Assembly (NCBI GenBank): GCA_041649175.1
Contig: JBAZNR010000002.1
Location: 47,149 to 111,148 of the forward strand
Direction of reading: 5' to 3'
DNA length: 64,000 nt
Origin: Candidatus Omnitrophota bacterium
GTDB taxonomy: Bacteria; Omnitrophota; Gorgyraeia; Zapsychrales; JBAZNR01
Part shown: positions 18,502-27,944 of the stretch, one piece after another
How positions within the stretch are numbered: position 1 is the stretch's first letter
Layout: every line of letters starts with the position of its first letter
The notes under the pieces: generated by a model
The model's database searches: none
Seen by the model: only the letters and a program-made list of their open reading frames with translations
What the model was told of the DNA's origin: nothing
Made by a program: the position numbers and the translations under genes

Positions 18502-19077
18502 ATGAAAAATATTTTTTTAAGAACAACTGGGTTGCTTTTGACGATCATTTTTATGTTTTCATTAATTATCATTTCAAGTGCCTTGGCGGAACCTTTAGGG
18601 TATGTTGCCTATTGGTATGGGAAAGTCAATCAGCATAAGATGATTAATGGAGCCTGGGAAACGGATCCCGATGGTGTCTCTGGAGCGGATATTTATCCCG
18701 ACCTGTATTGTCAAAAGTGGTTCCCGGATTCCCTTGGTGTAAGAGATTTAGGGCCGCAGCTCATTGAAGGATGGAAAAACCAAGGCAATTCCGGAAATTA
18801 TGCGGGTCAAGGCGTTGTTTATGAATGCACCACGCAAGCCGAAGCTAAAATTACAACGCCGGTTGTTGCCTGGGGAACTGGTTTTCCGACCTGGAAACGT
18901 CCCGGAGAACCGACAAATCCCTGCGACCTTGAACAACAAATGTTAGTTCAGGAAAAGCCTTGGAATGGGCCGCATTGCGAGAATGGCGTCATTGTGTCGC
19001 AGCCTAAGAATTCTGACGAGCCTGTGTTTATACCGCGCGCGTTAGATGGCTCTTATAAAGGCTCTTACGATCAATGA
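18502..19077 (+). CDS. hypothetical secreted Cys-containing protein
   Basis: 191 aa with an N-terminal signal/TM segment. No recognisable catalytic motif. Good RBS GGAGGA upstream. Confidence 0.45.
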   Translation: MKNIFLRTTGLLLTIIFMFSLIIISSALAEPLGYVAYWYGKVNQHKMINGAWETDPDGVSGADIYPDLYCQKWFPDSLGVRDLGPQLIEGWKNQGNSGNYAGQGVVYECTTQAEAKITTPVVAWGTGFPTWKRPGEPTNPCDLEQQMLVQEKPWNGPHCENGVIVSQPKNSDEPVFIPRALDGSYKGSYDQ

Positions 19078-19580
19078 TCTTAAAGAAGCACAGTAAGCGC
19101 ATTGTCGGATTTGCGCCCATTGCGGATAAAAATTCCAAAGTGCTTATTTTAGGCTCCATGCCGGGCGTTAAAGCACTTCAAGTGCGAGAGTATTACGGAA
19201 ATCCGCAAAATCATTTTTGGAAAGTAATGACAGCGCTTTTAGGCGCCAAAGCAAATTTAAGTTACGCGGATAAAAAGAAGTTGCTTGTTAAAAACAAAAT
19301 AGCGCTTTGGGATGTCGTTTTTTCTTGTCAAAGGGCAGGTTCTGCCGATTCTGCGATGCGAAATATCCGCCCCAACAATTTTAGAAATTTTTTCAAGAAA
19401 TACGCTAATATAAAGATGATCTGTTTTAACGGCCAAACGGCCGCCAAGATTTTTCAGCGGTTTAATTCGGATATTGATTTACCCAGCATTATTTTGCCGT
19501 CCACCAGCCCGGCGCATACGATCGGATTTAAAAGAAAGTTAAAAGGGTGGGGGAAAATATTGAACGGGCGCAGTTTTTAG
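19074..19580 (+). CDS. DNA-deoxyinosine (hypoxanthine) glycosylase, UDG-superfamily
   Basis: 168 aa. LILGSMPG and YYGNPQNHFW motifs are characteristic of the mismatch-specific and hypoxanthine glycosylase branch of UDGs. Confidence 0.65.
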   Translation: MILKKHSKRIVGFAPIADKNSKVLILGSMPGVKALQVREYYGNPQNHFWKVMTALLGAKANLSYADKKKLLVKNKIALWDVVFSCQRAGSADSAMRNIRPNNFRNFFKKYANIKMICFNGQTAAKIFQRFNSDIDLPSIILPSTSPAHTIGFKRKLKGWGKILNGRSF

Positions 19581-19633: not shown

Positions 19634-20644
19634 ATGTTTAAACCACATTATCGCACCACATCTTTTTTGATCAGTATTCTTGAGAATATGGCCGCGCAAA
19701 CGGCACTTATTAAGAATTCCGGCATTAAGTTTCCGGCGCGTGTTTCTCTTGAAAAAGATGCGGTCAATCGCAGTGTTCATTCCTCAACGTCGATCGAAGG
19801 TAACAACTTATCTCTTAAGCAAGTAGCCGCTTTAAGCGACAGAAAAGACATCGATGCTGATCAAAAACAAAAACAGGAAGTTCAAAATTGTTTAGCGGCC
19901 TTGCGCTGGGTTTTAGCGCACAAGCACAGTGCTTTTACGGAAAGTCAGCTTTTGACACTTCATAAGATGATGACCAAGGGACTTTTGCCTGCTGCTGCGA
20001 TCGGGCGATTTAGAAAAACTCAAAATTATGTGGTGAACGCTAAAAGAATCGTTATTTTTACTCCTCCGCCCCCCCAACAGGTAGCTCGTAAAGTAAAAGA
20101 ACTTTTTCTATGGCTTAAAAATACTCCCCTGGAGCATAGCGTTATTCATAGCGCTATTTTTCATCATGAATTTGTTACCATTCATCCCTTTACTGATGGC
20201 AATGGCCGGGTTGCGCGAGCAGCCAGCCAGTGGATTCTGCTCAAAAAGAAATTTGATCCCGTCTATACCTTAGGACTGGATGACTATTTTGCGCATGACC
20301 GAAACAAATATTATGCGATGATCCAACAGGCGCGCGATTTGGATAATGACTATACACATTGGATCGAGTATGTTGCTCAAGGCCTTTTAGTGTCGATTGA
20401 AAATATTGCCGGACGTATAAAGGAAATGAAGCGCGTCTTAAAAGGAAAAAGGATCGAATTAACGCCCAAGCAGGAAGAGATCTTAAATCTCTTAAATGAG
20501 CATGGCGCGATCGGTTCAGCGCAAATTTCCAAGGCAATGGATATCAATCGTGCGCGGGTTAATCAGCTGGTGGCGCCGCTTGTTAAAGCGGGAATTGTAA
20601 CCCAAGAAGGTAAAGCACGCGGCGTTAAATATGCTTTGAAGTAA
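19634..20644 (+). CDS. fic: Fic-family protein (class II, N-terminal inhibitory helix) with C-terminal winged-helix domain
   Basis: 336 aa. Canonical Fic motif HPFTDGNGRVARA. Inhibitory motif STSIEGN ([ST]xxxE[GN]) near the N-terminus. C-terminal wHTH-like region. Confidence 0.85.
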   Translation: MFKPHYRTTSFLISILENMAAQTALIKNSGIKFPARVSLEKDAVNRSVHSSTSIEGNNLSLKQVAALSDRKDIDADQKQKQEVQNCLAALRWVLAHKHSAFTESQLLTLHKMMTKGLLPAAAIGRFRKTQNYVVNAKRIVIFTPPPPQQVARKVKELFLWLKNTPLEHSVIHSAIFHHEFVTIHPFTDGNGRVARAASQWILLKKKFDPVYTLGLDDYFAHDRNKYYAMIQQARDLDNDYTHWIEYVAQGLLVSIENIAGRIKEMKRVLKGKRIELTPKQEEILNLLNEHGAIGSAQISKAMDINRARVNQLVAPLVKAGIVTQEGKARGVKYALK

Positions 20645-20856: not shown

Positions 20857-20934
20857 TAATAAATTTAACAGTTTGCGTCTTTGGTCTTGAATTGCGAAAG
20901 AGGGAGTGGGGAAGGTTTTGAAAGTGATCAGCAT

Positions 20935-21414
20935 ATGAAGAAAATAAATTCTATTCAAGCTGTCGCAATCCTGGCCACGCTTATAAGCGCAGCGACACTT
21001 TTTCGCCGGCAATTTGCGATCATGTTTGTACTTATTAATTTTGATACTTTCGTGAAAGAAAGCGGAAAACTCATTACAATAACAGGCTTGATCATTGATT
21101 TTCTACCTGTTTTGATTATTGTCGGAAGTTTGGGAGTTTTTCTGAGAAGACCGGGAAGTCTGCTCATCCTCAAATGGTGCTTTATTATCTCTTTAATCCT
21201 CAATTTATGGATTGGAATTATTCAATGCATCAATTTCTTTATTTTGCCTTCTATGGAAAATTATATTCCACCCGAAGGTTCCGTGGTTAGAAAAGCTAAC
21301 TTCGTCGCTCCGTTTATCTGGAGCGTTGTTTATGGATCGTTTCTTTATGTTGTCACTCGCCCCAAAGCCAAATTCTTTGGCATCCGAGCTCCAGAAAAAG
21401 ATGCGAGGGATTGA
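20935..21414 (+). CDS. hypothetical integral membrane protein (about 4 TM), first gene of the low-GC island operon
   Basis: ATG at 20935 (MKKINSIQAVAIL...). The track ORF extends to a TTG at 20881. No known motif. Confidence 0.5.
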   Translation: MKKINSIQAVAILATLISAATLFRRQFAIMFVLINFDTFVKESGKLITITGLIIDFLPVLIIVGSLGVFLRRPGSLLILKWCFIISLILNLWIGIIQCINFFILPSMENYIPPEGSVVRKANFVAPFIWSVVYGSFLYVVTRPKAKFFGIRAPEKDARD

Positions 21415-21428
21415 AGGAGCATTAAATA

Positions 21429-22067
21429 ATGCGTATAATTTTTGCTATACATGGAATTCAAAGCGTCCAAAAGGATAATTGGGTTAATAAATTTGTTAAC
21501 TATATTAACGAAGATGAACGATTTGATGGTGATATTAAAATACCGCATACTTATGGATATCTCCGGGCGCTTAATTCAGTAAACATGAAAACTAAATTTG
21601 ATCATGTTAAAAGTGTCATGCGAGAGTTGAGATCTCTTACGACTCAATATCCCGATGCTGAATTAAACATTGTTGGACACAGTTATGGGACAGAATTGAG
21701 TTATCAGGCGATCAAAAGAAGCGAAGAAGATGGCAAGTCGCCAATCAAAGTTAATAAGTTGATTTTAGTAGCCAGTATCGTTTCTGCTCATAGAGAAATT
21801 CCGTATGATGATACTCTGCGTGCTGGAAAGTTGAATGAGCTACATTGTTATTGCAGCTATAATGATGAAGTTTGTAGATATAATCCTTTTGGTCATTCTG
21901 GCTGCTTTGGTTTTTTGCGGAGCGCCTATGACATGAAATGTTATCAAAAACCTTTTAAAGATCTAGAAATTTATAATCATCAACAAAAAACTTTAGAACA
22001 TGGAGATTATTTTGAAGGAACTAAATTTTACAAAGAATGGCTTGATGTTATCGATCTAAGAAAGTAA
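21429..22067 (+). CDS. minimal alpha/beta-hydrolase, lipase/esterase-like (GHSxG serine hydrolase)
   Basis: 212 aa. N-terminal IIFAIHGIQS (oxyanion region) and nucleophile elbow IVGHSYGT. Candidate Asp at YNDEV and His at FGHSG. Size and layout resemble minimal lipases. Confidence 0.55.
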   Translation: MRIIFAIHGIQSVQKDNWVNKFVNYINEDERFDGDIKIPHTYGYLRALNSVNMKTKFDHVKSVMRELRSLTTQYPDAELNIVGHSYGTELSYQAIKRSEEDGKSPIKVNKLILVASIVSAHREIPYDDTLRAGKLNELHCYCSYNDEVCRYNPFGHSGCFGFLRSAYDMKCYQKPFKDLEIYNHQQKTLEHGDYFEGTKFYKEWLDVIDLRK

Positions 22068-22076
22068 CTTAATGTT

Positions 22077-23804
22077 ATGGTAAGAAAAATAAGCGGAAAA
22101 GAATATGAAGCTTGGTCAAAGGAGGATTTGATCAAGGAAATCGTGAAGATAAAAAGCACGACGTATGGGCTTGTTTGGCATCGCGATTTGCCAGAAGAAA
22201 AAATTGATATTTTAGTCAATCCGGATGCACGTACGCCAAGCGAGATGTTTCCCAACGAAATGGCGGGTAAGCCATTTCCTGTCTTGAAAGAAGTTAAGAA
22301 TAAAGCAATTGAATCTGATAAATCAAAACTCGTAAATCTTTTGATTGAGGGGGATAACTACCATTCTCTAGCTGTCCTTAATTTCACGCACCGCGAAGCG
22401 GTCGATTTGATCTACATTGATCCGCCTTACAATACCGGCAATAATGATTTCATTTACAATGACAAACTTGTTGATAAAGAGGATAGTTTTCGACATAGCA
22501 AATGGCTTTCGTTTATGGAGAAGCGTCTCAAGCTGGCAAAAAATCTTTTGAAACAAAGCGGGGTCATTTTTTTAAGTATTGACGATAATGAGCTGGCGCC
22601 ATTACGAATGCTTTGTGATGAAATATTCTCTTCAGAGAATTTCTTGGCAACGATAGTTTTGAAGAACAAAGCGGGTGCTGGAGCAAAACCAAAAGCATTA
22701 ATCGAGGTGCACGAATATATTTTGATGTACGCAAAAAGTTCCAGTTTCATTAAATCAATAAGCGTTCCTTATATTGAATCAAACAACAAGTTATTTACAA
22801 AAAAAGATAAGCATTTTTCGATCAGGGGACCTTACGGGACTTGGGCATTGGGGACAACTAGCATGGCTGATAGGCCAAATCTACGATACCCGATTAACTA
22901 TAATGGAGAAGAAATTTGGCCCGAAAAGCAATGGCTTTGGTCCAAAGAACGCGTAGAACAAGCAATGAAGAACGATGAACTTGTGTTCAATAAAATGAAA
23001 AACGGAAAATGGTCGGTTAGATTTAAACAATATTTAAAGGATAAAGATGGAATCTTGAGGAATTCAACCCCAACAACTCTTTTTGAGGGACCATATACAC
23101 ATGAAGGAACAAAAGAATTAGACGACATTCTAGGGAACCGTTTATTTATGTTTCCTAAGCCTGTTAACTTAATTAAGAAAATTCTAAAATTTAATTATAA
23201 TGGGGAGAAAAACAAAAATCACGTCATTCTTGACTTTTTTGCTGGTTCAGGGACAACAGGTCATGCAGTTTTAGAGCTAAACAAAGAAGACGGCGGTTGC
23301 AGATCCTTTATTTTATGTACGAATAACGGGGATCAAAAATCAGAGCATAAAATCGCTTCAGATATTTGTTATCCTCGGGTTAAAAAAGTAATAAGTGGAT
23401 ACAAAAATCAGAAAGAAGAGAAAGTCGATGGACTTGGCGGAAATCTCAAATATTACGCAACCGATTTCGTAGAAGCTGAGCCAACAGATAAAAATAAGCG
23501 AAAGCTAGTAAAAGAATCAGCGGATATGCTGTGCATCTTAGAAAATGCTTTTGAGTTTGTCCAAGGAACGGACGAATTCAAGATTTTTAAGAATACGGAT
23601 AAGTACATTGGGATTATTTTCTATGAGGAGGCAATAGAGGATTATAAAAAGATAATCAAAAAGATTGATGGGCGTTTTAACACTTACGTTTTCTCGATGG
23701 GTGATGATCCGCATGTGAGGAAATTTGCTGATGTTAAGAGTAAGGTGTCGCTTTGTGCAATTCCCGAAGTGATCCTAAAGGTATATCGGGAGATTTTTAA
23801 ATAA
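22077..23804 (+). CDS. mod: Type III restriction-modification methyltransferase (Mod), beta-class N6A/N4C MTase
   Basis: 575 aa. Motif IV IYIDPPYNTG precedes motif I LDFFAGSGTTGHA. Adjacent to the res gene. Confidence 0.85.
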   Translation: MVRKISGKEYEAWSKEDLIKEIVKIKSTTYGLVWHRDLPEEKIDILVNPDARTPSEMFPNEMAGKPFPVLKEVKNKAIESDKSKLVNLLIEGDNYHSLAVLNFTHREAVDLIYIDPPYNTGNNDFIYNDKLVDKEDSFRHSKWLSFMEKRLKLAKNLLKQSGVIFLSIDDNELAPLRMLCDEIFSSENFLATIVLKNKAGAGAKPKALIEVHEYILMYAKSSSFIKSISVPYIESNNKLFTKKDKHFSIRGPYGTWALGTTSMADRPNLRYPINYNGEEIWPEKQWLWSKERVEQAMKNDELVFNKMKNGKWSVRFKQYLKDKDGILRNSTPTTLFEGPYTHEGTKELDDILGNRLFMFPKPVNLIKKILKFNYNGEKNKNHVILDFFAGSGTTGHAVLELNKEDGGCRSFILCTNNGDQKSEHKIASDICYPRVKKVISGYKNQKEEKVDGLGGNLKYYATDFVEAEPTDKNKRKLVKESADMLCILENAFEFVQGTDEFKIFKNTDKYIGIIFYEEAIEDYKKIIKKIDGRFNTYVFSMGDDPHVRKFADVKSKVSLCAIPEVILKVYREIFK

Positions 23805-23805
23805 T

Positions 23806-26043
23806 ATGATATTCGAATTTAAAGATTACCAAGAAAATGCTGTTGTAAAGTTGAAGCGAGAAATCAATGAGCTTTTGGACTCGGATGAGAGCAAAATTTG
23901 TATTTTTAAAGCGCCTACAGGATCTGGTAAAACGCTGATGATGGCAGAATTCTTAAAGCGCTTAGTCGACTCTCGCGCAGATGGTAAGAAATTCTCGTTT
24001 GCATGGATTGCTGTAAATAAATTGCATGACCAGAGCCGAAATAATCTTCGGAAATATTACGATGAAAACGGTGTAGGTATAAAATGCTCGTATTTTGAAG
24101 ATTTGGATGATCGTAAAATTGGCGAAAACGAGATTTTATTTCTGAACTGGGCAAGTATCAATAAAAAAGACAATTTGTATGTTCGCGCAAATGAACGAGA
24201 TAACAATTTGACAAGTATTGTCGCTCGAACGAAAGATGAGGGCAGAATAATTTTTCTCATCATTGATGAAAGCCATCACACAGCGAATAGTGAAAAATCA
24301 AAGGAACTGATACAAGATATTGGACCCAAAATTACGATTGAAGTTTCAGCTACTCCACAACTAAATAACGCAAGCAGAATTGTTGAAGTGGAACTTAAAG
24401 ACGTAAAAGATGAAGAGATGATCAAGAAAGAAATTGTCATTAACCCTGGTTTTGAACATTACATCATTGATAAGAAGAAAAGTGACAAAACTGCAGATGA
24501 GCTTGTGCTAGAGACTGCGTTAAAAAAGCAGATTGAATTACAGAAGAAGCTTGAGATTGAAGGATCGGGTATTAATCCACTTTTGCTCATTCAATTACCG
24601 GATGCAGTGCAGGGTGTATCGGATAAAAAAGACGAGATTGTTACTTTACTCAAGAAATTTGGCTATACAACAGAAAACGGTCGACTCGCGATTTATCTTT
24701 CTGATAAAGACAACAAGGTAAACCTTACGAATATAGAGAAGAATGAGAACGAGGTTGAGGTGATGATATTCAAGCAAGCGATTGCGCTTGGCTGGGATTG
24801 TCCGCGCGCTTCAATTTTGGTTTTGTTTAGACAATGGCGCGAGGAAAACATTACTTTCTCTATCCAAACGCTTGGACGCATTATGCGTATGCCAGAGCAG
24901 AAACATTACGCCGATCAAGATTTGAACGTTGGCTATGTGTTCACGAGTTTACAGGACATCAATGTCGCCAAAGATTTATCGCGCGATTACATTACAACCT
25001 TTACTGGGTTTAGAATTAAGAATTACAAAAATCTTGATTTACTGGCCTATCACTCAAAGCGTTTCCGTGAGGAAACTCGCCTTTCCTCTGATTTTACGCC
25101 TCTTTTCGTCGAGGCAGGAAAGAAGCTGAAACTCAAAGAAAAGTTTTCATTCAAACATAGTATTTTAAAAACAAGTTTAATCGCGAGTGGTCGTGTTGTT
25201 GACAGTGATAAGGAAACAAAGGGCATAGATAGAAAAGGAACGCTTGATATTCCCAAGAATGAAGTTGAGTTGCAAAATGCGTTTGATATGTTTGCGCGAA
25301 ACAATCTCGCACCATTCGCGCCAGAGCAACGATCAATTGGTCGTATAAAAAGTTCAATCTATTCACTTTTTGAAGCGTCGCGAAACGAAGACGAATGGCC
25401 AAAGATTCAAGCCGCTGTTCTTGCGGAGGAAAACCGCCAAATTATGATTGATACCATCAATTTTGCAAAAGAAATGTATCAAGAAGAAGTTGGAAAAGGT
25501 AAAAATGAGCTAGTGAAGAATGAGGAGCCCTGGAATGTTCCGAAAGTAATAAACTACACTCTTTCTTTTGCAAAGAAAGATTATAAAAAGTCGGTGATGC
25601 TTCCATATTACACAAGGAAGTCCGGTGGAGGCACAGCGAATATGTTTGAAGAAGATAGTAACCTTGAAGTTGATTTCATAGAATATTTGGAAAAATCAAA
25701 AGAAGTGGAGTGGTGGTTTAAAAATGGGAAAAGTGATGCGACGTATTTCGCCGTACCGCATATGGAGCATGGGGCTGAAAAGCCATTTTATGTTGATTTT
25801 ATTGTAATGCAAAAAGATGGTCGCATTGGTTTATTTGATACAAAAGGCGGGCTGACTGCAGAAACGGCAAAATCACGCGCCGAGGGATTGGCAAAATATA
25901 TCACTGAACAAAATAAAAACGGTAAAAAATTATATGGCGGAATTGTGCTGAAAGAAAGGAATAGCTGGCGCTATCGTGATGGTTTGAAATACGAATACAA
26001 TCCAAGCAATCTCAAAGATTGGAAATTTTTGGATTTGAATTGA
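23806..26043 (+). CDS. res: Type III restriction enzyme Res subunit (SF2 helicase + endonuclease)
   Basis: 745 aa. Walker A APTGSGKT near the N-terminus. DEAH-like IIDESHHT. SF2 motif VI region. C-terminal PD-(D/E)xK-like YVDFIVMQK. Starts 2 nt after mod. Confidence 0.8.
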   Translation: MIFEFKDYQENAVVKLKREINELLDSDESKICIFKAPTGSGKTLMMAEFLKRLVDSRADGKKFSFAWIAVNKLHDQSRNNLRKYYDENGVGIKCSYFEDLDDRKIGENEILFLNWASINKKDNLYVRANERDNNLTSIVARTKDEGRIIFLIIDESHHTANSEKSKELIQDIGPKITIEVSATPQLNNASRIVEVELKDVKDEEMIKKEIVINPGFEHYIIDKKKSDKTADELVLETALKKQIELQKKLEIEGSGINPLLLIQLPDAVQGVSDKKDEIVTLLKKFGYTTENGRLAIYLSDKDNKVNLTNIEKNENEVEVMIFKQAIALGWDCPRASILVLFRQWREENITFSIQTLGRIMRMPEQKHYADQDLNVGYVFTSLQDINVAKDLSRDYITTFTGFRIKNYKNLDLLAYHSKRFREETRLSSDFTPLFVEAGKKLKLKEKFSFKHSILKTSLIASGRVVDSDKETKGIDRKGTLDIPKNEVELQNAFDMFARNNLAPFAPEQRSIGRIKSSIYSLFEASRNEDEWPKIQAAVLAEENRQIMIDTINFAKEMYQEEVGKGKNELVKNEEPWNVPKVINYTLSFAKKDYKKSVMLPYYTRKSGGGTANMFEEDSNLEVDFIEYLEKSKEVEWWFKNGKSDATYFAVPHMEHGAEKPFYVDFIVMQKDGRIGLFDTKGGLTAETAKSRAEGLAKYITEQNKNGKKLYGGIVLKERNSWRYRDGLKYEYNPSNLKDWKFLDLN

Positions 26044-26047
26044 AAAT

Positions 26048-27022
26048 ATGACAACGATTAGAAAAACTGAAGGTGGGATAGAATACTTATTTGGATTGCT
26101 AAAAGAAAAAGCAAAAACTGTTACTCGTGCTGCTTTTTGGAAAATCCCACATAAAAACTCACAACAAGAGGATATTTGCCTAAAAATTGGCAGATATAAC
26201 AAGAATGGCTTCGCGCCTGAAACACTTGAAAATACAAATCCAAAAAGTGAACTTACTTTGGATAATGAGGAATTTCAGAAATTACTTGAGTTTTTATCGG
26301 ATAACTACGAACCCTTTAAAAAGGGAGTAAAAGAGTATATCCCAATTGATGAGAAATTTGACCATCAAAAGGTTAAACATTTAAGGGCAATTTTTGCGGA
26401 TCCAGACAAACAGAAAGTTTTGGATTTTATTGCAAAGAACAATATCTTGCCAGAAGACATGATTGCGGGATTGCAACATCAGGCAAGAATGGGGGCGGTT
26501 AGAGAATTTGAAAATATGCTTGACCAAAATTTGCTTGAGCAGAAATGGCAGGAATGGCTAAAGCGAAATGACTGGGTTCTTGGAAGTGAATTTGTGAAGA
26601 TTTTAGAAGAACGAGAAATAGATACCGCAAATATCGCAGATTATTTAATGCAAGCGTATGATGGTTTTCTTGATATTGTTGAAATTAAGCGGCCCGAAGG
26701 GAACTTGCAATTTTGGGCCAATGGGCAGGATCATGGGAACTATGTGCCATCAGCCGACTTAACAAAAGCTGTTACACAAGCGACGAAATATATTTATGAA
26801 GTGGAACGTGAAGCAAACAGTGTGAAATTCTTAGAACGAGTCGCTAATGTAAAAACAATAAAACCGCGTTGTATATTGATTTTCGGTAGATCAAGCGACT
26901 GGAACAATGAGCAAAGAGAAGCATTTCGAATTTTAAATTCTAGCTATCATAATTTAACGATAATGACCTATGACCATGTTTTAAGTCGAGCCAAGCGGAT
27001 TTTAGAAATTGATGAAAAATAA
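26048..27022 (+). CDS. candidate Shedu-like (DUF4263) PD-(D/E)xK nuclease, last gene of the R-M operon
   Basis: 324 aa. Putative nuclease motif D..DIVEIK followed by a conserved C-terminal ILIFGRS....TYD region. Starts 5 nt after res. The assignment to DUF4263 is from memory of the family, not from a search. Confidence 0.4.
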   Translation: MTTIRKTEGGIEYLFGLLKEKAKTVTRAAFWKIPHKNSQQEDICLKIGRYNKNGFAPETLENTNPKSELTLDNEEFQKLLEFLSDNYEPFKKGVKEYIPIDEKFDHQKVKHLRAIFADPDKQKVLDFIAKNNILPEDMIAGLQHQARMGAVREFENMLDQNLLEQKWQEWLKRNDWVLGSEFVKILEEREIDTANIADYLMQAYDGFLDIVEIKRPEGNLQFWANGQDHGNYVPSADLTKAVTQATKYIYEVEREANSVKFLERVANVKTIKPRCILIFGRSSDWNNEQREAFRILNSSYHNLTIMTYDHVLSRAKRILEIDEK

Positions 27023-27134
27023 TTTAAACCGTTTCTAAATAATTATTGTTGTTAAAAAAATAGCGTGCCAGGCACAAAGCGGGGACAGGGTTGCCCCTAC
27101 TGATTTGAGAATAATCAACGAGGAAGGATATCCA

Positions 27135-27944
27135 ATGAAAAGCGGCAAAGATAAAGACAAGCAGGAAAAGAAACTTGGCAAAAAACTTTACGAACGCGAA
27201 CTTAAAAAACTACAAATAGAGCTGGTAAAACTCCAAGAGTGGATCAAGCGCAAAAACTTAAGAGCGATCGTTCTCTTTGAGGGCCGCGATGCCGCCGGCA
27301 AGGGCGGGGTTATCAAGCGTATTACTCAGCGTACCAGCCCGCGCATTTGCCGGGTGGTGGCTTTGAGCGTTCCGACAGAAAAAGAAAAAACCCAGTGGTA
27401 TTTTCAGCGTTATATCGCCCATCTTCCGTCGGCCGGAGAAGTGGTTTTATTCGACCGCACCTGGTATAATCGCGCCGGGGTAGAACGGGTGATGGGGTTT
27501 TGTACCGATGAGGAATATAAGGAATTTTTACGCTCGGTTCCGGAATTTGAACGGATGCTCATCCGCTCCGGCATTATCCTCATCAAATATTGGTTTTCGG
27601 TAAGCGACGAGGTTCAGGAAAAACGGTTTCAAAAGAGGCTGCAAGATCCCCGACGGCGCTGGAAGCTAAGCCCCATGGATTTGGACGCCCGCACCAGATG
27701 GGTGGAATATTCCAAAGCCAAGGATACCATGTTTGAGTGCGCCGACACAAAAGAGTCGCCCTGGTATGTGGTCAATGCCGACAATAAACGCCGCGCACGG
27801 CGTAAGTGGATTCATCATCTTTTAAGCAAGATGTCCTACAAAGACCTAACACCTAAACCCATCAAGCTGCCGCCGCGCCAAAAAGATAAGGGCTATGTGC
27901 GCCCACCGCTTACGAAACAACATTTTGTGCCGGAAGTGTATTGA
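27135..27944 (+). CDS. polyphosphate kinase 2 (PPK2, polyphosphate:nucleotide phosphotransferase)
   Basis: PPK2 P-loop VLFEGRDAAGKGG and lid/Walker B region. RBS GAGGAAGGA before ATG 27135. The track ORF starts at a TTG at 27105. Higher GC than the preceding operon. Confidence 0.88.
   Translation: MKSGKDKDKQEKKLGKKLYERELKKLQIELVKLQEWIKRKNLRAIVLFEGRDAAGKGGVIKRITQRTSPRICRVVALSVPTEKEKTQWYFQRYIAHLPSAGEVVLFDRTWYNRAGVERVMGFCTDEEYKEFLRSVPEFERMLIRSGIILIKYWFSVSDEVQEKRFQKRLQDPRRRWKLSPMDLDARTRWVEYSKAKDTMFECADTKESPWYVVNADNKRRARRKWIHHLLSKMSYKDLTPKPIKLPPRQKDKGYVRPPLTKQHFVPEVY

Follow-up and report, generated by a model that had tools for sequence, protein, structure and literature searches.

The sequence analysed here, a 64,000-nucleotide stretch of contig JBAZNR010000002.1 from a Candidatus Omnitrophota bacterium (hereafter the window), contains a Type III restriction-modification (R-M) operon that ends in a gene for a Shedu-family nuclease. 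This gene, sduA, is an open reading frame (ORF) on the + strand (26048..27022; ATG at 26048, TAA at 27020-27022) and forms the terminal cistron behind mod (22077..23804, +) and res (23806..26043, +). An original prediction, made from the DNA letters and their translations, had proposed a Shedu (DUF4263)-like nuclease of 324 aa at this position. We found the 324-aa ORF and the peptides quoted from it exactly as described, on the + strand.

The sduA gene and its Type III operon

Profile and pairwise searches agree on the family of the sduA product. The profile PF14082 (SduA_C, DUF4263) matches aa 164-311 across profile positions 4-158 of 159 (97.6 bits, E=1.1e-27; gathering cut-off 27 bits), and 23 SduA models of PADLOC match the protein, the best of them (PDLC00385, E=2.1e-144) covering aa 15-322 of 324. 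Searched against PDB sequences with phmmer, it matches Shedu proteins only: B. cereus Shedu (8TI8/8TI9, 9e-10) and E. coli SduA (8PS4/8PS5, 1.7e-7). These matches bear out the proposed DUF4263/Shedu identity. An identical sequence is named 'Shedu immune nuclease family protein' by NCBI, from a Ca. Omnitrophota metagenome-assembled genome, and a 100% match is present in a collection of 5.8 billion proteins. For the window itself this adds little: it is one more Shedu gene, already named by NCBI and recognised by PADLOC.

The PD-(D/E)xK active site of B. cereus Shedu comprises E204 (motif I), D249 (II), E264/K266 (III) and Q295 (IV) (Gu et al., bioRxiv 10.1101/2023.08.10.552793). In the phmmer alignment to 8TI8, whose chain numbering is offset by +2 and was corrected accordingly, these residues correspond to E164 (26537-26539), D198 (26639-26641), E212 (26681-26683)/K214 (26687-26689) and Q244 (26777-26779) of the window protein, all encoded on the + strand, so that each catalytic D/E/K position falls at a conserved motif position. 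The five residues are invariant in 49 close SduA homologues; in a diverse set of 35 sequences reaching down to 23% identity, D198, K214 and Q244 still never vary, while conservation of E164 and of E212 is at least 90%. The original prediction had placed the PD-(D/E)xK core in YDGFLDIVEIKRP. That peptide (aa 204-216, 26657-26695) does include the motif III residues E212 and K214, but the motif II aspartate D198 lies outside it, within NIADYL, 7-14 residues upstream. The two further segments cited there, ILIFGRS and TYDHVL, are aa 276-282 and aa 307-312. By family and motifs, the ORF at 26048-27022 is a genuine, intact Shedu (SduA) defence nuclease.

We next consider the layout of the protein, which is predicted to have three parts. 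An N-terminal domain (aa 1-72; 26048..26263, +) is modelled as three long antiparallel beta-strands (residues 12-20, 24-34 and 41-51), with a nearly invariant tryptophan, W31 (26138-26140, +), in the sheet. It is followed by a helical linker region (aa 73-158; 26264..26521, +) with model helices at 73-91 (a long one), 106-116, 121-130 and 136-158, a region that aligns with B. cereus Shedu residues 117-205 in phmmer. The DUF4263 PD-(D/E)xK nuclease domain (aa 159-320; 26522..27007, +) is delimited by the 8TI8 alignment and Foldseek. The AlphaFold model underlying this description has a mean pLDDT of 83.7, with 0 residues below 50 and values of 65-89 in the N-terminal domain. It was built on an alignment enriched with diverse sequences from a search with the N-terminal region; an earlier model on a shallow alignment was poor over the N-terminal 113 residues (pLDDT <50) and was discarded for that domain.

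Against the PDB, the top Foldseek match of the model is E. coli SduA with DNA (8ps5_A, E=5e-11, 303 aligned columns, rmsd 15 Å), followed by the B. cereus nuclease domain (8ti9_C, TM 0.77, rmsd 3.4 Å) and, after the SduA structures, by EndoMS/NucS, which both Shedu papers name as a relative (Gu et al.; Loeff et al.). Like Shedu/SduA enzymes, the window protein places a presumably regulatory N-terminal domain ahead of a helical linker and the DUF4263 domain; its fold matches 8TI9 and 8PS5. At 324 aa it is shorter than the solved enzymes (380-410 aa) and has a small N-terminal domain. E. coli SduA (8PS4/8PS5), with the same domain order, is the best structural match; sequence identity to it is about 20% and confined to the nuclease domain.

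The N-terminal 150 residues had been described as unrelated to anything recognisable. This holds for sequence searches of Pfam and PDB, which returned 0 matches even at E<=10, but not for SduA itself, as PADLOC SduA models cover aa 15-322 and E. coli SduA can be aligned to the structural model across 303 columns. An exhaustive search with these 150 residues found 133 matching cluster representatives among 1.84 billion. All full-length matches are SduA-sized proteins (318-355 aa) that match at their N-terminus, the others being shorter fragments, which indicates that the N-terminal domain is confined to this SduA clade.

Upstream of sduA lies a complete Type III system. The mod gene encodes a 575-aa Type III beta-class N6-adenine methyltransferase (Pfam N6_N4_Mtase, E=2.6e-35; PADLOC MTase_III, E=2.2e-91), in which DPPY (aa 115; 22419-22430), the target recognition domain (TRD) and FAGSG (aa 388; 23238-23252) follow one another in the beta-class order typical of Type III Mod. 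The res gene encodes a 745-aa Type III restriction subunit, an SF2 helicase-nuclease (Pfam ResIII, 74 bits; PADLOC REase_III, E=4e-20; NCBIfam restriction-endonuclease C-terminal match, 3e-5), with no PDB sequence match at E<=0.01. Its helicase motifs (GSGKT 23920-23934, DESH 24265-24276, SAT 24346-24354 and QTLGRIMR 24865-24888, all +) and C-terminal nuclease motif (E621 25666-25668; FYVD, with D664, 25786-25797; DTK, D678-T-K680, 25837-25845; all +) do not vary among 12 Res proteins that span 33-98% identity. The window Res is shorter than EcoP15I Res, and we considered whether SduA replaces a nuclease missing from a Res of only 745 aa. This idea was rejected, since the E...FYxD...DxK motif is invariant in Res and its 11 homologues. 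With both sets of motifs intact, Res is a complete helicase-nuclease, to which SduA adds a second nuclease instead of substituting for one. The exact window Res is missing from the 5.8-billion-protein collection, where the best match has 89% identity. Precomputed annotations of Res homologues list PF27151 (YagJ), a newer Pfam family outside our local Pfam copy.

The three genes are tightly packed. The mod stop lies 1 nt before the res ATG, and the mod-then-res order is the same in all related loci. The res stop (TGA, 26041-26043) is separated from the sduA start by a 4-nt gap (TGA-AAAT-ATG, 26041..26050, +), with no Shine-Dalgarno-like motif ahead of the sduA ATG. A consensus scan of 25088-27424 found no promoter-like or terminator-like site on the + strand, and the next gene, PPK2, begins only after 82 nt. 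On this arrangement, sduA is the last and probably co-transcribed gene of a complete Type III R-M operon and is probably translationally coupled to res, in line with the terminal-cistron placement first proposed.

The same junction takes part in a 16-nt inverted repeat in which 15 of 16 positions are complementary, between 26026-26041 (at the res stop and sduA start) and 26231-26246 (sduA codons 62-67). A role for this repeat as an RNA-hairpin coupling device is not supported: the duplex energy reaches a z of about -2 against shuffled controls, and does so in only part of the Res clades. Each arm also codes for a conserved peptide (FLDLN and NPKSE), which constrains its sequence, and a functional structure is improbable.

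Neighbours of SduA across its clade

Placement of Shedu genes within R-M systems has been documented before. Gu et al. [quoted passage not shown] The window is an instance of the same phenomenon, here with a Type III system. To place it among its relatives, we compiled a junction census from genome and metagenome scans and contig look-ups, which gave 46 distinct SduA junctions, 44 of them with usable upstream DNA. An R-M gene lies directly upstream on the same strand in 29 of these 44 (66%), compared with 11% for Shedu overall, an approximately six-fold enrichment next to R-M over the whole Shedu family when the figure of Gu et al. is taken as the comparison. The earlier view that a Shedu gene in an R-M operon is unusual therefore does not stand. 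It is well supported that R-M-linked placement occurs in Shedu generally and is the usual state in this clade, an ordinary defence-island feature.

The identity of the upstream gene varies, as does the gap. Type III Res precedes sduA in 18 junctions, at -1 to +4 nt. Eight more follow Type II methyltransferases, a class in which we counted together N6_N4 methyltransferases (4 junctions, 2-62 nt), N6_N4-like methyltransferases (2 junctions, 3-8 nt) and Eco57I-like methyltransferases (2 junctions, 22 nt). The remainder comprise one junction each for a Dam-class methyltransferase (150 nt), an HsdS that itself comes after HsdM (10 nt) and R.AlwI (105 nt). Further upstream of the four N6_N4 methyltransferases are R.AlwI (loci L027 and L030) and a PLD-type endonuclease (L057), while L059 is too short to tell. 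In 3 further junctions, a 71-aa XRE helix-turn-helix (HTH) gene lies 4 nt upstream of sduA and a Fic gene downstream. Compared with the survey of Gu et al. as a whole, linkage is the majority state in this clade, and sduA keeps a fixed position immediately behind the last R-M gene's stop codon.

Several loci retain traces of an earlier arrangement. At L002, a relic of the res 3′ end persists over 48 codons (83% identity, with an in-frame stop inside), and at L021 about 35 nt encoding KDWK.FDLN* lie between R.AlwI and sduA. DNA homology to the window reaches 125-150 nt into the res 3′ end in L001 and L002. Relics of res upstream of relocated sduA copies suggest that the Res-SduA junction is probably ancestral for much of the clade.

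The SduA proteins themselves are strongly conserved. Their hosts include Omnitrophota, CPR/Patescibacteria, Elusimicrobia, Bacteroidota and Ignavibacteria. Compared with L001, L003, L005, L019, L028, L030, L032 and L035 by the Nei-Gojobori method, window sduA has a dN/dS of 0.03-0.06 with dS at 1.2-2.5, near saturation. Such ratios indicate strong purifying selection. Recent horizontal transfer was rejected as the cause of the 84-90% SduA identity seen across phyla: because dS is near saturation, this identity is better attributed to purifying selection. Conservation in this clade is unusually high for a defence gene. Scans of viral contigs for relatives of Res and SduA gave no match.

Res does not share this conservation. 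In 11 loci with both genes complete, Res identity spans 33-98% and SduA identity 84-99%. L003 and L035 share 96% of SduA and 36% of Res; the window shares 90% of SduA and 34% of Res with L001, against 87% and 91% with L028. The lowest SduA dS (1.22, window versus L001) is found alongside a Res dN of 0.70. The window and L028 look co-inherited, with a dS of 1.34 for Res and 1.55 for SduA.

We also approached the junction from the opposite side, sampling seven Res genes 71-89% identical to the window Res, all of them behind a Mod. Intact SduA follows res in none of these seven loci. In its place are a 180-aa protein at a 2-nt gap (L063), a 224-aa protein at 4 nt (L064:6240-6914), a 944-aa Ppl-like PHP-ATPase at 0 nt (L069:6239-9073; PADLOC Ppl, 1.4e-41), a 948-aa Ppl-like protein at 4 nt (L071:6237-9083), and, after 104 nt, a DUF3644 protein (PDC-S19, 4.9e-127) with a Cas4-like nuclease (L068:6343-8839). 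At L070 the res stop is followed after 1 nt by a 48-aa ORF, which was rejected as an SduA relic as it is unrelated, and at L075 no gene is nearby (352 nt). L063:6241-8048 holds proteins of 180, 193 and 220 aa; these and the 224-aa protein have no Pfam or PADLOC match, and such unannotated occupants are candidate defence genes. The variety of occupants behind near-identical res genes suggests that the slot is exchangeable and that the window SduA is one occupant of it. The finding that this slot also holds other defence genes in sister Res lineages may go beyond the survey of Gu et al., and it makes the position after res a place that could be mined for new defence genes, a lead from comparative genomics.

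The slot also bears marks of loss. SduA relics lie behind intact Mod-Res at L008 (38 codons) and L060 (52 codons), so that the R-M system evidently persists without SduA. SduA is broken off after 38-52 codons at L008:9995-10690, L060:2020-2211 and L061:1872-2063, and these stubs indicate that recombination drives turnover of the slot. Several of the seven loci sampled through Res have integrases, serine recombinases and a rolling-circle Rep gene nearby. At L008 the stub reads in frame into a C-terminal part that, by eye, resembles the conserved region of Type I HsdS. At L062:3179-3991 and L064:3244-3981, both closely related to the window's Type III system, an additional unannotated, tightly spaced gene of 245-270 aa sits between mod and res, which the window does not have.

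Together, these comparisons support the view that SduA is not a dedicated Res subunit; on the genomic evidence it is one of several interchangeable single-gene defence modules placed after R-M stop codons.

Possible action of SduA and competing explanations

The two characterised Shedu enzymes both act at DNA ends (Loeff et al.). In the E. coli SduA tetramer, the N-terminal domains form a clamp that admits only a free double-stranded DNA (dsDNA) end, on which Trp25 stacks; the enzyme then nicks 14 nt from the 5′ end and spares circular DNA, and the nuclease becomes toxic once its N-terminal domain is removed (Loeff et al.). Both proteins have a conserved N-terminal tryptophan (W31 in the window, W25 in E. 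coli SduA), and end clamping followed by nicking is likely shared. The two genes differ in setting, in that E. coli SduA is a stand-alone gene in a P2 prophage hotspot and window sduA belongs to an R-M operon. From the same three-part layout, the intact active site and the nearly invariant Trp31, we infer that window SduA is an end-sensing nuclease. Action on DNA ends, which the original prediction had envisaged, would fit the characterised Shedu proteins.

By analogy, SduA would form a homotetramer whose N-terminal domains admit free DNA ends only, and would then nick or cleave near the end, sparing the circular host chromosome. Co-expressed with R-M, it could act both on the ends of linear incoming phage DNA and on the double-strand ends that arise when Res cuts unmodified DNA. 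RecBCD degrades restricted DNA, and phages shield their ends with Gam (PMC12707154); SduA may likewise form a second layer resembling RecBCD, one that keeps restricted DNA from being repaired or from replicating by way of recombination. A generic end-acting second nuclease would explain how one conserved SduA serves unrelated R-M types, and also why tight co-expression is selected. We therefore consider it likely that window SduA is a self-contained Shedu with a beta-rich N-terminal sensor, a linker and a nuclease domain, co-expressed with the R-M genes and plausibly acting on restriction-generated ends. The terminal-cistron linkage of this clade to Type I, II and III R-M offers a testable case of synergy, in which the ends made by one enzyme are the ends sensed by another.

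Several points weigh against this reading. First, end sensing, tetramer formation and synergy with restriction are suggested by analogy. Second, in sequence the SduA N-terminal domain does not resemble those of the E. coli and B. cereus enzymes, and because the overall rmsd of the 8ps5 alignment is 15 Å, structural equivalence of the modelled domain to that of E. coli SduA is not established. Third, the window copy lacks the acidic ...DIPF tail of about 70% of its close homologues, described below, and might be functionally altered. Fourth, the census loci were retrieved with peptide patterns taken from this one protein, many of them lie on short contigs, and several junctions are close relatives, such that the 29 of 44 should not be read as that many independent events. 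Finally, the tight linkage could reflect mere co-expression or hitch-hiking on a mobile R-M unit.

The last of these points leads to the most durable of the alternatives, namely that the association is purely genomic: the 3′ ends of R-M operons would be mobile, expressed and recombination-prone landing sites, and SduA, as an independent defence gene, would have no mechanistic interplay with restriction other than sharing a defence island with it. Much of the genomic context suits this explanation. Unrelated defence genes occupy the slot behind res in sister lineages; integrases, serine recombinases and rolling-circle Rep flank several loci; the window block is a low-GC insertion; SduA also occurs with an HTH gene only; and the gathering of defence genes in islands is widespread (Gu et al., bioRxiv 10.1101/2023.08.10.552793). 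However, hitch-hiking leaves the roughly six-fold enrichment (66% of junctions against the 11% of Gu et al.) unexplained, and a junction precisely 0-4 nt from the upstream stop speaks for selection of coupled expression over chance insertion. The two characterised Shedu enzymes, moreover, act at ends, which are the product of restriction, so some interplay is expected even without a dedicated partnership. We accordingly regard pure hitch-hiking as unlikely, and the conserved junction together with the R-M enrichment argues for selected co-expression.

A dedicated three-gene system would go to the other extreme. Here SduA would be a physical or functional subunit of the Type III enzyme, either as an obligatory second nuclease or as a latent guardian resembling PrrC, held by Res and freed upon inhibition of Res by a phage anti-restriction protein. 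A spacing of -1 to +4 nt is kept in 18 junctions across at least 4 deep Res clades, and the res 3′-end relics of relocated copies (L002 and L021) and the homology running 125-150 nt into res (L001 and L002) are consistent with such a bond. Precedents exist as well: guardians embedded in R-M loci are known in PrrC and PARIS (PMC12707154), and a two-component Shedu is known in KELShedu (PMC12577705). PrrC of EcoprrI, a Type Ic R-M system, resembles SduA in being a second-line nuclease whose gene lies inside an R-M operon and is expressed together with it; PrrC, however, is a nuclease for tRNA anticodons that its cognate R-M enzyme physically holds until a phage inhibitor frees it. KELShedu likewise has a DUF4263 nuclease in a tight operon with another gene, and the XRE-HTH-SduA variant (L009-L018) resembles its arrangement of a small DNA-binding KELA and a KELB nuclease. 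The KELShedu partner is a 12.6-kDa DNA-binding protein, whereas the gene paired with sduA in the window encodes a 745-aa Type III Res.

The partnership evidence runs the other way. SduA and Res do not co-diverge (L003 and L035 being one example, and the window being closer in SduA to L001 than to L028 another), and members of the same SduA clade stand behind Type II methyltransferases, R.AlwI, HsdS and the 71-aa HTH gene at equally tight gaps. None of the seven close Res relatives carries SduA, Res retains a complete nuclease motif of its own, and SduA relics behind intact Mod-Res (L008 and L060) show the R-M genes persisting alone. The co-divergence and exclusive linkage to one R-M lineage that would mark a cognate R-M guardian were not found for SduA. 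As SduA moves among unrelated R-M types without co-diverging from Res, a cognate-partner mechanism is unlikely; the discordance, the varied upstream genes and the varied slot occupants argue against a dedicated Res-SduA partnership, which we consider very improbable. On functional coupling of SduA to Res in the looser sense of the original prediction the evidence is divided, with co-expression speaking for it and partner discordance against a dedicated pairing.

A last alternative concerns the state of the window copy and turns on its C-terminus. In about 70% of the 120 closest SduA homologues, the C-terminus is extended by an acidic tail of about 19 aa (for example, encoded at L001:5387-5449, L003:5656-5712 and L021:8967-9032), which has the consensus ...(E/D)-D-I-P-F-COOH and gives the last 20 aa a net charge of about -5. 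The tail is missing from the window at 27008-27022, where SduA ends in ...RILEIDEK* rather than a ...DIPF mimic of the C-terminal tip of SSB (single-stranded DNA-binding protein), and no tail-coding homology is found in the DNA downstream of window sduA. About 20% of homologues are also tailless. In most members of the clade the tail is present, and the solved enzymes, like the window copy, are without it. That the window SduA is a decaying or functionally altered, perhaps inactive Shedu draws on this loss and on the truncated SduA relics common in related loci (L008, L051, L054, L055, L060 and L061), but it has little chance of being correct: the ORF is otherwise full length with all motif residues and conserved core positions intact, the tailless homologues lack the tail independently and still have intact ORFs, dN/dS against tailed homologues is 0.03-0.06, the PADLOC SduA model stops where the window protein stops (profile position 317 of 319), and neither of the solved enzymes, from B. 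cereus and E. coli, bears this tail.

The tail is of interest in its own right. The C-terminal tip of bacterial SSB (DDDIPF) docks SSB-interacting proteins, and the SduA clade tail closely resembles it. The searched Shedu literature makes no mention of a DIPF tail, and, being carried by most of the clade, the tail suggests that Shedu and the SSB interactome are connected in a way not described so far, again a lead from comparative genomics.

Extending the end-sensing reading further, one could tentatively picture the SduA clade, unusually conserved at a dN/dS of about 0.04, as a 'restriction finisher' that evolved into the translationally coupled final cistron of R-M operons of any type (66% of junctions), destroys the ends left by restriction and docks through its SSB-like tail, with the res slot being hot-swappable. 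We think this full version rather doubtful. If it were true, the finisher would perhaps stand in for RecBCD/AddAB in CPR, Omnitrophota and similar lineages, and the ...DIPF tail would dock most members onto SSB-interacting replication or repair proteins. A hot-swappable slot would also make new defence genes of the 224-aa protein of L064, the 180-, 193- and 220-aa proteins of L063 and the 245-270-aa genes between mod and res.

Flanking genes

The operon lies within a low-GC block (20881..27022, +) that holds, in order, a gene for a 177-aa protein (20881-21414, +; no family match), a gene for a 212-aa lipase-like alpha/beta-hydrolase (21429-22067, +; weak Lipase_3 similarity, 1e-5), mod, res and sduA. 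The gaps among the two small genes and mod are 14 nt and 9 nt. GC content is 37% in the block and 45% on both sides; by its composition, the block is horizontally acquired. No credible att-like direct repeats flank the island, and the window contains no tRNA genes.

Adjoining the block on the left is a Fic/SoFic-like gene (19634-20644, +; 43% GC; PADLOC SoFic, E=3e-54) with a C-terminal winged-helix/MarR-like domain. At E<=1e-4 it is unrelated to the Fic genes adjoining SduA in L009-L018, and neither it nor the 177-aa or hydrolase gene recurs near related SduA or Res loci. Housekeeping genes surround the island. Pfam matches identify the left flank further out as a UDG gene (19074-19580), with succinate dehydrogenase, HemN and PEBP genes also on that side. 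On the right, GC rises from 36% to 47% across the 82-nt spacer between sduA and the housekeeping gene PPK2 (27105-27944), which is followed by ABC-F genes.

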